This document shows, piece by piece, positions 15,682-20,671 of a stretch of 56,125 nt of DNA. The notes below the pieces were generated by a model. It worked only from the letters and a program-made list of their open reading frames with translations. It had not been told where the DNA came from and did no database searches. Position numbers and translations under genes: made by a program. The stretch is from Candidatus Magasanikiibacteriota bacterium (lineage in GTDB: Bacteria > Patescibacteriota > Patescibacteriia > Magasanikbacterales > JACTTX01): NCBI GenBank assembly GCA_015661005.1, contig JACTTX010000009.1, forward strand, positions 1-56,125, written 5' to 3'. The stretch's first letter is position 1, and each line of letters opens with the position of its first letter.

Positions 15682-17769
15682 TCAAAGCATTTTTTGAATG
15701 TCGCTTTCCGTCACGATTTTCACCCCGAGCTTCTGCGCCTTATCATACTTTGATCCCGGGTCTTTGCCAACCACCACTAAGTCCGTCTTGGCCGAGACCG
15801 TTTCACCAATATCCGCTCCGGCCGCCCGCAGAGCCGCTTTTATTTTTTCACGGGAAAATTTTTCCAAAGCGCCGGTGACCACAACTTTTTTACCGGCCAG
15901 TGGTCCTCTTGCCAACGCCGCCGCATCGGCAACAACAACAATCTTCACCCCGTTTTTTTGCAGAGTATTAACCAAATCCCGATTTTTGGCGTTATAAAAA
16001 AATTCATAAACGCTTTTGGCCACCACTTCACCAATCCCGAAAATATTTTGAAGCGCCGCCTCATCCGCCGCCATCAACGCTTCAATTTTATGAAAGGCCC
16101 GCGACAAATCCAAGGCCGTCTCTTCGCCAACGTTCGGAATGCCGAGGGAATTTATAAATCGCGATAAATTAATGGTGCGGCGGGCGGCAATGGCATCCAC
16201 CAAATTAACCGCGGACTTTTCCGCAAAACGCGTGAGCGGTTCCAAGTCCCCAACTTTCAAAGTAAAAATATCGGCCGGAGTTTTTACCAATCCCGTTTGC
16301 ATTAACTGTTCCACAATTTTTTCCCCAAAGCCGTCAATATCAAAACCGCTTTTGCCGACAAAATGCCTAACTTTCCGCGATTGCACGGCAAAGCAGTGGG
16401 GATTGGCGCAAACAATCGCCACCTCGCCGTTGCGTCGCAAAACGGGCGAGCCGCAAATTGGACAAAGACGCGGAGGATGAATTGCTTTTTCATTTCCCGT
16501 GCGAAGTTTAGTTAGAACTTGCACCACTTTGGGAATAATGTCGCCGGCTTTTTCCAAAATCACCGTATCCCCGATCTTCAAACCCAAGCCGTAGGGTCGT
16601 CTTGTAATCGAGCGTGAGAATCTGGCGGCCACGCTGACGGTAACGGTGGTGCCGCCAACCGGCGTTGGCTTTAAATTGGCGACCGGCGTTAAGACGCCGG
16701 TGCGTCCAACCGACCAATCCACTCCCAGCACAATCGTCGTGGCCTGTTCCGCCGGAAATTTGTACGCGATATGTCCGCGCGGCGTTTTGCCGACAACGCC
16801 GAGCCGCGTAAAAGTCCGATCATCATTGACCGTGGCCACGACACCGTCAAACCAATAATCTTGTTTGTCGCGCTTCAATAAAAGCGCGACGTGATATTTT
16901 TCCACGTCTTCAAGCGTTCGGCAAAAAAGATTCTGCGGATTGGTCTTGACGCCCAGAAGTTTCATCAATTCATGCCCTTGTTCGTGTGTCGTCAATCCTA
17001 AATCCGTGACCAAAGCGTAACCAAAAAAATCCAAATGACGGCTGGCCGTAATTTTGGAATCCAGCTGGCGAATGGCGCCGGCCGCGGCGTTTCTGGGGTT
17101 GGCAAAGGGCGGCTCGCCTTTCTTTCTTTGGCCGACGTTTAATTTCTTCAACGTCTTCTTGGTCATATAGGCCTCGCCGCGAATTTCCATCGTGCCAGTA
17201 TGCAGAGCCGCCACAATTTTTTTGACGCACATTTCCGGCGCGCCGAATTTTTTTACAAACGTCCGCAATTCAACCAAAGACGGCTCCCGCAATCGCAAAG
17301 GAATGGCCTCAATCGTTTTCAAATTTTCCGTGACGTCTTCCCCTTCTTTCCCGTCGCCGCGCGTTGATCCGCGCGCCAAAAGTCCCCTTTCATATTCCAG
17401 AGAAACGGCCAGTCCGTCCATTTTAATCTCGCCGTAAAAATCATAACGGCCGGACGGTTCAATTTTTTTAAGCCGCGCCAGCCAATCGCGCAATTCTTCA
17501 AAAGAAAAAACATCCTCCATTGAGAGCATGGGGATATTATGAAGCGCTTTTTTGAACTCCGGCAGAGCCGCGCCGCCAACCCGTTGAGTTGGCGAGTCCG
17601 GCGTTACCAAATCAGGAAATTCCCGCTCCAACTTAAAAAGTTCGTGCTTCAAAGAATCAAGCGCGGCATCGGAAATCAGAGAACGGTCATGAACGTGATA
17701 TTCGTAACGATAACGTTCAATTTCCTGTTTGAGTTTGGCGAGGCGAGCCGCGGCGGCGGAGGAAGTCAT
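15682..17769 (-). CDS. ligA: NAD-dependent DNA ligase (ATLHN segment replaced)
   Basis: KMDG, RGDG..GEDVT, EIRGE, NPRNAAAG, AYKFPAE, Zn finger, BRCT. Confidence 0.95.
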   Translation of the reverse strand: MTSSAAAARLAKLKQEIERYRYEYHVHDRSLISDAALDSLKHELFKLEREFPDLVTPDSPTQRVGGAALPEFKKALHNIPMLSMEDVFSFEELRDWLARLKKIEPSGRYDFYGEIKMDGLAVSLEYERGLLARGSTRGDGKEGEDVTENLKTIEAIPLRLREPSLVELRTFVKKFGAPEMCVKKIVAALHTGTMEIRGEAYMTKKTLKKLNVGQRKKGEPPFANPRNAAAGAIRQLDSKITASRHLDFFGYALVTDLGLTTHEQGHELMKLLGVKTNPQNLFCRTLEDVEKYHVALLLKRDKQDYWFDGVVATVNDDRTFTRLGVVGKTPRGHIAYKFPAEQATTIVLGVDWSVGRTGVLTPVANLKPTPVGGTTVTVSVAARFSRSITRRPYGLGLKIGDTVILEKAGDIIPKVVQVLTKLRTGNEKAIHPPRLCPICGSPVLRRNGEVAIVCANPHCFAVQSRKVRHFVGKSGFDIDGFGEKIVEQLMQTGLVKTPADIFTLKVGDLEPLTRFAEKSAVNLVDAIAARRTINLSRFINSLGIPNVGEETALDLSRAFHKIEALMAADEAALQNIFGIGEVVAKSVYEFFYNAKNRDLVNTLQKNGVKIVVVADAAALARGPLAGKKVVVTGALEKFSREKIKAALRAAGADIGETVSAKTDLVVVGKDPGSKYDKAQKLGVKIVTESDIQKML

Positions 17770-18530
17770 AACATCCTCCCGATATATTTCAAAAGCGGTT
17801 CAGCAAAAAAAATCGCGATCAAAGCGCCAGCAATCAGATATGTGCCAAACGGCACCGTTTCCCCAAAGGTCTTACGGCGCAGACCCAGCAAAATCAAAAC
17901 ACCAACGAGCCCGAGCACATAAGCCAAAATAAAAGACGGCGCCACCAAGGGCCAGCCCACCACCAAACCAATCAAAAATCCCAAACGAATATCGCCCCCG
18001 CCAACCCAGCGGCCGCGGGAAATCAAATATTGCGCCAAAAAAAATCCGCCGCCAACAACGCCGCCAATCAAACTGCTCTGCCATCCCCAATGCATCATTT
18101 GCATCCAGACAAACGCGATTAAAATGGCGGGCAGAGTGATTTGATCCGGCAATTCGCCGTAACGGGCGTCATAGACAAACAAGAAAATAAAAATCGCAAA
18201 AATAAACCACCAAAAAAATAATTGCGCCAAGGATACGCCAAGCGGCAAACCCAACGGCACCAAGGTGAGCGCCAGCACAAAAAGCAGAGCCGTCACCAAT
18301 TCCACCACCGGATATTGCCAGTGAATTTCCGCGTCACAGGTGCGGCAATGCCCTCGTAAAAGCAAAAAACTCGCGACTGGCAGCAAATCATGCCAAGCCA
18401 ATTCCATGCGACAGGTGAAACATTGCGAACGACCGCGCCAAATGGGCAAGCCGTAATGCAAACGAAAAATAGCGGCGTTCAAAAAACTCCCAATCGCGAG
18501 GCCAAACAAGAGAGAAATAAGAACGGGCAT
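17766..18530 (-). CDS. pilD: type IV prepilin peptidase (A24)
   Basis: GSFLN, two CxxC motifs, YD..LPD, GGGDI, VPFG. Confidence 0.92.
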   Translation of the reverse strand: MPVLISLLFGLAIGSFLNAAIFRLHYGLPIWRGRSQCFTCRMELAWHDLLPVASFLLLRGHCRTCDAEIHWQYPVVELVTALLFVLALTLVPLGLPLGVSLAQLFFWWFIFAIFIFLFVYDARYGELPDQITLPAILIAFVWMQMMHWGWQSSLIGGVVGGGFFLAQYLISRGRWVGGGDIRLGFLIGLVVGWPLVAPSFILAYVLGLVGVLILLGLRRKTFGETVPFGTYLIAGALIAIFFAEPLLKYIGRML

Positions 18531-18531
18531 A

Positions 18532-18695: not shown

Positions 18696-19532
18696 CTACT
18701 GTATGCCACTGGGGCTGGCCGTCACCACCCCGCTCAAATTACCAACCGTTCCTTCAAGGCCGCCCTTTACCGTATAGGTTGAAAAGGGTTTTTCCGAGGT
18801 GTAACGGTAACTCGTGCCGCCGGGAATTGGATTGGACGGCACGGCATCCAAATACACGCGTCCATTACACTCATTGGCGCCAGCCGCAAAGCCGTCACCG
18901 CCGGAGCCGTCATCGCATAACACCAGGTAATTACCTACTCCCAAAATGGCTTCCTTGCCCTGTGGATAAGCGTTTTTATCGGAAAAATAAAGTTCCAACG
19001 CCGTTTGCACCACGCGCAAATCAGACACGCGTTTGGAATCGCGCGATTTTTCCCGCGCCGAACCCAAAGCAACGACGGCCAACGTGGAAAGCAAACCAAT
19101 TATGGCAATCACCACCAAGAGCTCAATCAAAGTAAATCCTTTCCGATGCTTTGCCAACACTTTCTTAATTCTCACACATGTCTCTGACGGCTTAAAGTGC
19201 GCCTTGATTAAATAATCTTCGGCGCCTAATTGGAAGCCGCGCTCAATTTCATCTTTTTGTCCGAGATTGGTAAGCATAATAACAGGAATGTTTTTAGTCG
19301 CTGAATCTTTCTTGAGCTCTTCCAAGATACTAAACCCGTCCACTTTAGGCAGCAAAACATCAAGCATAATTAGGGCGGGTACCTTGCTCCTGGCCTTACG
19401 TAGTCCGTCGGTACCGTTTCGCGCTATCTGAACGTTATACCCCTCAAGTTTTAATTTTGTTTCGTAAATGCTGACTAGAAATGGATCGTCGTCAATAATG
19501 AGTATTGTTTCTGAAATTTGTTTCTTATTCAT
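18696..19532 (-). CDS. receiver (REC) domain fused to a type IV pilin
   Basis: ILIIDDD..IMLDV..VIMLTN..YLIK followed in frame by [29 protein letters not shown] and [14 protein letters not shown]. Confidence 0.9.
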
Positions 19533-19582
19533 AACTAAAGAACTACGGTTGCCAGATTCTATCATTGAAGCGCTAGACAGCA

Positions 19583-20671
19583 CTATACCACATTGCGCAT
19601 GGCCAGACCAATCGCGACGCTGAAACGCGGCCCGATCTGCTGTAAAACCGGCTTCAATGGCGCCGGCGCCGTCACCCGCGTCCACGGATCTCCAATGACA
19701 GTTTTCAGATTGTAGGTCTTTTCAATATACGCCGCCAGATGCGGAATCAAAGCCGAACCGCCGGTTAAAATAATGCGATCCGGACGGCGTTCCTCCACCA
19801 AATTCTGATCGGCAAACACTTCCATGGCATATTGAATTTCTTTCAAAATGGGCGAGACGGAATTTTCCAAGAGTGAAAAAAAACCGGCGTGATTGGGGTC
19901 ATGTTGCGCTGATTCCGCCAGATCAATCTTAAGCGGCCCGACTTCTTCCACTGAAACCCCCAACGCCTTGGCCAGCACCAAGTCAAAATTCCGGCCGCCC
20001 AATTCTATAGAACGGTCAATTCTGGGCACTCCGCGATCAACGACTAAAAAATTTGTCCGCTCCGCGCCAATGTCCACAATGACTTGCGCGTTCTGATCTT
20101 TTCCCACCAAGGCGCGGATTAAAGCGAACGATTCCGTTTCCAAACTATCCAGCGTCAAACCGGCGCCGGTGAAAATATCCGAGTACACCTGCACAACATT
20201 TTTTCTGGTGGCCGTCACGAGTAATTGTTCCACCCGCTCGGCCACACGCTTATCTCCGCCGTCGGTGAGAGGTATCTGACGGGTATCAAGCATGGCTTCA
20301 TCCAATGGAAAAGGGATAAGTTTTGAAACCTCGCGATTCACCACTTCTTGAAACTCTTTTTTAGCCACCTTGGGAATGGTGATGATGGCGCTAAACACCA
20401 TTGAAGCCGGCAAACTGGCGACCGCCATTTTGGAAACGGCTTTGGCTTGCTTAACCACAATAGCCAAACGACGCGCCTGTTCTTTGACCACCGGTAACGG
20501 ATCTTCTCCGGCGGAAAATTTAGCGCGAACCGGCGTCAACTCATCCGTGAATCCGTAAGTGCGGAGCTTGGCTTTACCGCCTACATTTTCCAGTTCCACA
20601 AGTTTGATGCCACCGGCGCCCAAATCAACACCCAGGAAGCTCGCGGATTTTTTTGATGGGAAAGGCCACAT
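19583..20671 (-). CDS. pilM: type IV pilus assembly protein PilM
   Basis: [34 protein letters not shown]. Confidence 0.92.

Follow-up and report, generated by a model that had tools for sequence, protein, structure and literature searches.

A rare, lineage-specific fusion of a CheY-like receiver to a type IV prepilin in a Patescibacteria pilus operon

What should be made of a prepilin whose leader is a complete receiver domain? The question is raised by one gene in a 56,125-nucleotide stretch of DNA from a Candidatus Magasanikiibacteriota bacterium (contig JACTTX010000009.1 of assembly GCA_015661005.1; hereafter the window). There, a single open reading frame (ORF) between pilM and the prepilin peptidase gene pilD joins a CheY-like receiver (REC) to a type IV pilin. 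A sequence-only reading of the window had proposed that processing by PilD releases a soluble response regulator along with mature pilin, or that REC phosphorylation gates pilin maturation. We find that the gene is a real, rare and lineage-specific fusion of known parts, and not a widespread new signalling device. It very probably arose as a derived fusion of two conserved operon neighbours, restricted to its lineage. That PilD cleavage regenerates both proteins is, on the sequence evidence, a proposition to which we give even chances. The fused gene has the following parts.

19137..19532, minus strand: CheY-like REC (residues ~1-128) plus the pilin-leader remnant HRKG, together residues 1-132, the 'leader' if PilD cuts (Response_reg match, AlphaFold2 model).
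19134..19139, minus strand: predicted prepilin-peptidase scissile bond at codons G132/F133 (KG/FTLIE, the slash marking the cut, with E at +5).
18696..19136, minus strand: mature pilin, 146 amino acids (aa; F133-Q278), plus the TAG stop (N_methyl match, AlphaFold2 model).

The frame runs uninterrupted from 19532 to 18696 on the minus strand and encodes 278 aa followed by a TAG stop. Pfam places Response_reg (PF00072) at residues 10-111 (E 1.2e-22, 80.6 bits against a cut-off of 30.2) and N_methyl (PF07963) at residues 128-152 (E 3.5e-9, 36.3 bits against a gathering score of 21.2), and the REC matches PDB receivers down to E 1.3e-25. In an alignment of 41 operon receivers, the REC half retains D14/D15/D16, D58, T88 and K110, which form the acidic pocket, the phospho-acceptor Asp, the Thr and the Lys. 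At the class III site, G132 is at -1, F133 at +1 and E137 at +5 (KG/FTLIE), about 20 hydrophobic residues follow, and the pilin head carries Cys206 and Cys222. The anatomy that the sequence-only reading had described, with REC, class III site and pilin head in one ORF, is borne out by the 278-aa frame, the Pfam matches and the key residues. Its Cys pair in the head was found, and its cut between 19137 and 19136 is right, as G132 is encoded at 19139-19137 and F133 at 19136-19134 (minus strand). The class III site lies 132 residues from the N-terminus and is preceded by a folded receiver, so that the short hydrophilic leader of a type IV prepilin is missing; this leader measures about 4-15 aa in all 45 other REC-pilin pairs inspected.

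The fold of the fused protein was predicted with AlphaFold2 from a 37-row alignment of three fusions, stand-alone receivers and stand-alone pilins (mean predicted local distance difference test score 92.7, predicted template modelling score 0.63). The model contains a (beta-alpha)5 receiver over residues 9-130, with alpha5 at 115-130, and a pilin of the lollipop fold, with alpha1 at 135-186 (52 residues) followed by a five-strand beta head. A non-helical four-residue hinge at 131-134 (K-G/F-T) joins REC alpha5 to pilin alpha1. In the model, the scissile bond is exposed in this hinge, yet it sits only about 2-4 residues from a folded domain. A modelled complex between PilD and residues 1-190 of the fusion (score 0.01, mark 0.32) gave no answer and is used neither way.

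Could the joint be an artefact, created by a missed stop or by a chimeric join through the conserved pilin N-terminus? The pilin N-terminal DNA (~19095-19142) is common to many organisms of the same samples, and many short contigs break there, which speaks for such an error. We compared the Logan contigs of four public runs over 18500-19800, and two of them cross the junction: a 317-nt contig (run X1, record 5) spans 18970-19286 without differences or gaps, and an 810-nt contig (run X2, record 12) spans 18634-19443 with 4 substitutions and no gaps. No indel or joint inside the fused ORF was reported in the contigs over this interval. The two runs come from different studies and years; one may be the source sample, leaving at least one independent confirmation. 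One X2 substitution, 18925 A>C, corresponds to the L203R change of a one-residue variant known from protein databases (P0002), and a fused protein 77% identical to the window's exists from another source. Because gapless contigs from two studies span it, the junction claimed from the letters holds in reads, and an assembly or sequencing artefact is very unlikely.

The genes on either side of the fused ORF belong to a conserved operon.

19583..20692, minus strand: pilM, 369 aa, first gene of the conserved operon (Pfam PilM_2, E 1.2e-34).
17766..18530, minus strand: pilD, bifunctional prepilin peptidase/N-methylase, 254 aa (A24_N_bact, E 1.5e-27; Peptidase_A24, E 5.3e-14).
15682..17769, minus strand: ligA, conserved downstream synteny anchor, found after pilD in most related loci (tblastn).

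An alignment of 41 PilD orthologues shows little or no variation at the four Cys, D121 and G179-D180. We searched 40 genomes of the same order in six frames and then read the loci directly. The conserved operon in this order consists of pilM, a stand-alone receiver of 117-136 aa, the pilin, pilD and usually ligA. A clear receiver gene lies immediately 5′ of the pilin in 27 of the 40 genomes; pilM is upstream of it in all 27, and pilD (usually then ligA) lies beyond the pilin in 24. The synteny with pilM and pilD, proposed earlier as a check, is conserved in the order: REC sits between pilM and pilin in 27/40 genomes. Two further genomes (G038 and G018) have weak receiver matches only at the position 5′ of the pilin; among the remaining 11, the single locus read (G002) has pilM, a 435-nt gap, the pilin and ligA. 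The fused halves are ordinary members of these families. The pilin half is 55-60% identical to hundreds of Patescibacteria pilins of 150-160 aa, and the REC half is 52-60% identical to the same-position stand-alone RECs of most same-order relatives, falling to 22-47% in the most divergent. As a variation on this layout, one locus (L030; G039:C1, 2501-3496) has two tandem pilin paralogues after the receiver.

In every one of the 27 same-order pairs, REC and pilin are separate genes, and the receiver ends in a TAA, TAG or TGA stop. The spacer between them measures about 10-100 nt and usually carries a strong Shine-Dalgarno (SD) sequence (AAAGGGGGTGA or AAGGGAGGTGA); longer spacers also carry an extended -10 promoter element of the TGnTATAAT type (TGGTATAAT and variants). 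The relatives' pilins start at their own ATG, with leaders such as MNKKG or MQKKG. Among the loci L021-L030, L039, L044, L068, L127 and L129, many spacers combine an extended -10 (TGGTATAAT, TGCTATAAT or TGTTATAAT) with a near-perfect SD, AAAGGGGGTGA, an arrangement that implies a separate strong pilin transcript within the operon.

The split state extends beyond the order. Among 79 metagenome loci fetched with the 77%-identical fusion, the pair is adjacent in 14 and split in all 14; another 14 have both genes non-adjacent, and 51 have no receiver match, many of these contigs being short. A sample of the class with one genome per family (61 genomes) shows the tight arrangement in a few other families. 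The pairs read there (G385, G084, G082 and G064) are all four split, and one genome (G047) has pilM-pilin-pilD without a receiver. Altogether, REC and pilin are split in 45 of the 45 pairs other than the fusions (27 same-order, 14 metagenome and 4 other-family), and the fused state is therefore derived. The idea of a designed 'receiver-as-leader' system finds no support in this comparison: the receiver is ancestrally a stand-alone operon gene, it is split from the pilin in all 45 other pairs, and only three fused clusters were found.

Several apparent fusions were rejected. Genomes G030, G012 and G084 seemed to have single frames over both genes, which TGA or TAG stops separate, and in L023 and L035 two genes overlap briefly in different frames. 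We also considered programmed read-through of the receiver stop. In 7 of the 27 same-order pairs the two genes are in the same frame, close to the one-third expected by chance, which lends read-through no support.

How rare, then, is the fused form? We queried 5.8 billion proteins in two word-indexed searches, for which the complete protein and its junction region (residues 88-165) served as the queries. Among the best 120 matches of each, both searches returned the same three clusters with both domains: P0002, which is the window protein with one change (L203R); P0003, a 282-aa protein from a JGI source, 77% identical to the window fusion; and P0004, a 301-aa protein from an ENA source, 45% identical to it. 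An exhaustive profile search of 1.84 billion representatives gave, among its best 150 matches, a full-length match to the window's cluster only, the other 149 being multi-receiver proteins or plain pilins. In a motif scan of 371 proteins, P0001-P0004 alone had a class III site further than 60 residues into the chain, and none of 26 matches to longer proteins (488-2000 aa) had both domains. Of 401 genomes of the class, the window's own (G000) is the only one in which a match (E <= 1e-48) runs through both halves without a break; three other matches (G013, G020 and G385) contain stops. The ESM Atlas returned receiver clusters alone, with a score of 0.83, which has the standing of a lead. Recurrence in many independent lineages was not encountered in these searches, from which fusions to unrelated pilin types would escape. 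The architecture, for which a search across genomes had been proposed as a check, recurs in P0003 and is confined to three clusters. For the same reason the fusion is nearly, though not fully, a singleton, the 77%-identical P0003 standing beside it. Two other proteins stand out. P0132 (166 aa; Logan, contig of 1,057 nt) is a receiver ending KNKTKRKGVTL, which resembles the start of a class III site, and is possibly a fourth fusion cut by the contig end; P0122 (172 aa; Candidatus Falkowbacteria, NCBI) is a pilin with a tandem-duplicated class III segment and so two candidate PilD sites.

The three fusions are not joined in the same way. We compared the P0004 protein sequence with the REC-pilin spacer of its split relative L029. 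This spacer encodes MWYNMRNEKYN in one frame, where TGGTATAAT gives WYN, and KGGEFMNKKG in the pilin frame (GGGGGTGAATTTATG). The P0004 linker reads as a translated spacer, its WYN corresponding to TGGTATAAT and its GGEFM to the SD and ATG, which means that P0004 still carries the pilin's promoter, SD and ATG. P0004 is accordingly best seen, from its linker, as a read-through ORF whose pilin would still be made separately. At the P0003 junction (KKILQKYKSKSMRTKG/FTLIE, with MRTKG), only the Met is retained from the ancestral pilin start, and the window junction retains neither Met nor SD. The stand-alone receiver P0124 ends in KKVLAK, an exact match to the window REC before HRKG (its orthologues generally end KVKKVLxx), and a relative's pilin leader (L010) is MSIHKRG. 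From these ends, it looks as if the window junction joins the last residue of REC to the last four residues of a leader. As the three junctions differ, fusions arose at least twice, with one event on the way to P0004 and one (or more) on the way to the window and P0003. Judged by what each junction has lost, the window form is the most complete of the fusions.

We can now describe how the fusion may have arisen and persisted. A deletion would have removed the REC stop and the spacer, with the pilin's promoter, SD and ATG, and joined the end of alpha5 (KKVLAK) to HRKG. The 278-aa protein would then insert into the membrane in bitopic fashion, REC facing the cytoplasm and the pilin head the exterior. 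The adjacent PilD would cut after G132 and methylate F133, and the products would be the ancestral pair: a free 132-aa receiver, the size of a stand-alone orthologue, and a normal 146-aa mature pilin. Such a fusion could be tolerated and close to neutral, with a 1:1 production ratio and a transient membrane tethering of the receiver as side effects. Since cleavage would restore the ancestral two-protein state, the fusion can persist, and since the split state is found in all 45 other pairs, we do not read it as a purpose-built system. In the available passages of PMC10191384, the prepilin leader is cytoplasmic and of variable length, the two Asp of the peptidase lie at the cytoplasmic face of the membrane, and processing needs no other protein. 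Since a prepilin has its leader side in the cytoplasm (PMC10191384), the topology is coherent with PilD setting a single-domain receiver free. Of the earlier proposal that PilD frees a receiver, then, the intact receiver, the canonical site, the adjacent intact PilD and the coherent topology all stand, while the cleavage itself is predicted.

The two halves have not evolved alike. The REC half was said to be AT-richer than the pilin half, and it is: its GC content is 40.8%, against 52.7% for the pilin half (44.0% against 56.8% at third codon positions) and 49.4% for the genome, and the genome's three other REC genes (47.5-48.3%) lie above it. Between the window and P0003, the REC halves are 67% and the pilin halves 89% identical; with 89% identity in the pilin and 77% overall, the ORF has stayed open through appreciable divergence. 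Among pairs with 80-95% pilin identity, REC identity averages 85% (range 65-97; 22 pairs, the window/P0003 pair included, which are kin and not independent).

Several points weigh against our reading of a tolerated fusion processed by PilD. The comparison just given offers a hint, from few and related pairs, that the REC half diverges faster than expected, and its fast divergence together with its low GC would fit relaxed constraint on REC. In the model, the hinge is short enough that it may impede access of PilD to the scissile bond. We know of no prepilin with a folded, domain-sized leader that is processed. The window pilin lacks the strong promoter and SD of its relatives, which is odd for a major subunit. 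Finally, where the pilin ancestrally started, P0003 and P0004 still have an in-frame Met and the window has GTG/TTG, so that separate translation of the pilin is possible. The window candidates are these.

19155..19160, minus strand: in-frame GTG (codon 125) and TTG (codon 126), candidate internal starts giving a 7-8-aa leader (sequence, anti-SD pairing).

The last of these points leads to a different account, in which one ORF gives two products: the pilin would be translated from the internal GTG125 or TTG126 (leader MLAKHRKG or MAKHRKG), as it would be from the Met of P0003 and P0004, and the full-length protein would be minor or a run-through. The P0004 linker keeps the pilin's own expression signals, P0003 retains MRTKG/FTLIE, and the GTG and TTG lie 7-8 codons before G-1, matching the leader length of the relatives. 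However, neither candidate position has an ATG, and their anti-SD pairing energies (-3.7 and -5.1 kcal/mol) are no better than the gene-wide background mean of -4.36. The strong SD of most relatives' pilin genes (AAAGGGGGTGA) has been lost in the window, and the sole promoter-like site on the minus strand is downstream of the junction; a promoter and terminator scan of 17500-20900 found 3 promoter sites against a shuffle mean of 3.3, and no excess over shuffles. Weak SDs are common in this genome (the annotated ATG pairs at -0.3, pilM at -5.1 and pilD at -3.9 kcal/mol), and because its genes often do without a strong SD, the missing SD is weak evidence against an internal start. On balance we consider internal initiation unlikely. 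The same loss of the pilin promoter and SD could instead mark a step of decay, in which deletion of the spacer crippled the pilin, the receiver or both, and the locus is drifting while a pilus cluster on another contig (C41) does the work. The fast-evolving, low-GC REC half, the extreme rarity of the fusion and the presence of another pilus locus that looks complete (REC-pilB-pilC and seven class III proteins) fit such a course. Against it stand an ORF unbroken in two strains and in a 77%-identical relative, 89% conservation of the pilin half, the retention of all key residues of the receiver and the class III site, and intact pilM and pilD genes on either flank. We judge decay to be improbable.

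In contrast to both, the fusion might have acquired a signalling role: a membrane-held receiver freed by PilD would report pilin flux, or REC phosphorylation would gate cleavage and pilus assembly. In favour of such a role are an intact receiver, a genome that encodes just four receivers (two of them in pilus loci) beside two histidine kinases, and the persistence of the fusion to 77% identity. In the available passages of PMC6058289 and PMC7196804, coupling between the pilin pool and a kinase has precedents in PilA-PilS and PilA-PleC. However, REC and pilin are split in the 45 other pairs, which shows that this pilus system can do without such coupling. The fused lineage is also very small, its REC half has diverged more quickly rather than more slowly, and nothing fusion-specific, such as new conserved residues, was found. 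We therefore hold an acquired signalling role to be doubtful, and the special coupling of signalling to maturation that the sequence-only reading proposed is possible but unsupported. Its boldest form, in which PilD would act as a signalling protease on a membrane-tethered pro-receiver, freed or phospho-gated upon prepilin processing, with the free receiver reporting pilin flux to the motor, seems to us a long shot. A derived fusion of operon neighbours remains the explanation that we prefer.

How does this gene compare with known systems? Known prepilin leaders lack structure and reach a few tens of residues at most. One close likeness is to long-leader prepilins, namely those of type IVb and the type IVa major pilins of Streptococcus sanguinis, which share the class III signal, a hydrophilic cytoplasmic leader up to the Gly, the Glu5 of alpha1N and a nearby aspartic peptidase (available passages of PMC10191384). 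The window leader differs from theirs in being 132 aa long and a complete receiver, confidently folded in the AlphaFold2 prediction. Modular pilins such as S. sanguinis PilB likewise carry an extra functional domain (PMC8179133, in part). Their modules are C-terminal and displayed outside on the pilus, whereas the window module is N-terminal, would lie in the cytoplasm and would be cut off ahead of assembly. Our searches also found long pilins of Patescibacteria that carry C-terminal modules.

Stand-alone receivers tied genetically to pilus genes are known elsewhere, as PilG/PilH in Pseudomonas and the PATAN-REC protein that binds PilB in Synechocystis (PMC10519157 and 10.1101/2021.06.11.447907, available passages). 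The window receiver differs from all of these in lying between pilM and the pilin and in being covalently joined to the pilin. It differs from PilG/PilH also in that its genome shows no CheA-type kinase or chemosensory cluster, as judged by HATPase_c matches, CheW and MCP families not having been searched. PilA-PilS in P. aeruginosa and PilA-PleC in Caulobacter likewise tie the amount of membrane pilin to two-component signalling (PMC6058289 and PMC7196804, available passages). In those systems the N-terminal helix of the pilin contacts a membrane sensor kinase, whereas the link in the window, if any, would be a peptide bond broken by the peptidase.

Prepilin peptidases share the GxGD aspartic-protease design with presenilin and signal-peptide peptidase, and in presenilin-type cleavage a precursor anchored in the membrane gives up a signalling domain to the cytosol. 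Freeing of REC by PilD would be a formal parallel to this, except that a regulated or signalling use is unsupported here and that the freed domain is a protein that the relatives make directly. Full-text literature searches, supplements excluded, returned nothing relevant on a receiver-prepilin fusion or on a CheY-like gene in pilus operons of the candidate phyla radiation (CPR). A survey of CPR pili (PMC6744442) lists PilB/T/C/M/N/O/D and pilins, and the term 'response regulator' is absent from it, although its Supplementary Data 1 might list the receiver family.

The value of the fusion is that of a natural test case for the substrate tolerance of prepilin peptidases and of a pointer to an undescribed receiver in the pilus operons of Patescibacteria. 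If PilD processes it, the fusion would show by a natural example that the leader accepted by a prepilin peptidase can be a folded domain of 132 residues. Processing would also provide an engineering handle, a cytoplasmic cargo freed at the membrane, and would bear on substrate recognition by the peptidase, which the available text of PMC10191384 describes as poorly understood. If the signalling-protease proposal were true, the gene would represent a bacterial analogue of presenilin-type release, and its leader would be the longest and the first folded natural leader of a type IV pilin. Whether or not cleavage occurs, the fusion provides evidence of the 'Rosetta-stone' kind that the pilus is where the CheY-like gene acts which this order conserves between pilM and the pilin.

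The phospho-acceptor position of this receiver family is not uniform. The P0004 receiver has Ser in place of the phospho-acceptor Asp, and its nearest relative, L029, has Ala there. Altogether, the operon receivers L012, L029, L030, L035, L044, L068, L083 and P0004 have lost this Asp (to Glu, Ala or Ser); they keep the T/S and the K, except L035, which has no K. From these substitutions, the Asp-less operon receivers are possible pseudo-receivers acting without phosphorylation.

The rest of the genome (0.87 Mb, 97.85% complete) supplies candidate partners. No kinase had been seen in the window, and indeed all three HATPase_c matches are on other contigs (C14, C37 and C3). The match on C3 is GyrB, C14 encodes a 792-aa PAS-type HisKA kinase followed by two receivers, and C37 encodes an orphan 563-aa 7TM-type HisKA kinase; neither HisKA kinase is near the fused gene. 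No CheA-type kinase is present, in that HATPase_c finds the two HisKA kinases and GyrB in this 97.85%-complete genome, where CheW and MCP families were not searched. The genome has four receiver domains, all counted as single-domain proteins, and none was seen with PF00072 fused to a DNA-binding or enzymatic domain. Two of the four sit in pilus loci, which, with only two kinases, suggests that much of the two-component signalling of this organism is devoted to pili. Pili are thought to mediate host attachment in these episymbionts.

The second pilus locus lies on C41 (18123-27957; L126) and holds a receiver, pilB (T2SSE and MshEN), pilC (T2SSF), two class III proteins, further ORFs and five tandem pilin genes. 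Its receiver, directly 5′ of pilB-pilC, heads the motor operon. The genome encodes eight class III proteins, and the seven other than the fusion are all in this locus; the five of them that match the fused pilin are 24-32% identical to it. By these identities, the conserved operon pilin has a single close orthologue in this genome, the fused one.

One further feature of the window directly follows the pilin stop.

18615..18680, minus strand: perfect hairpin (arms of 23 bp, loop of 15 nt) immediately 3′ of the pilin stop (sequence; unique in the genome).

No Rfam family reaches its gathering score on this hairpin. In two metagenomes, contig depth over the hairpin reaches 219 and 100, against about 5-7 in the flanks, with many variant contigs; the high depth and the variants indicate that similar hairpins occur in many other organisms of those samples.

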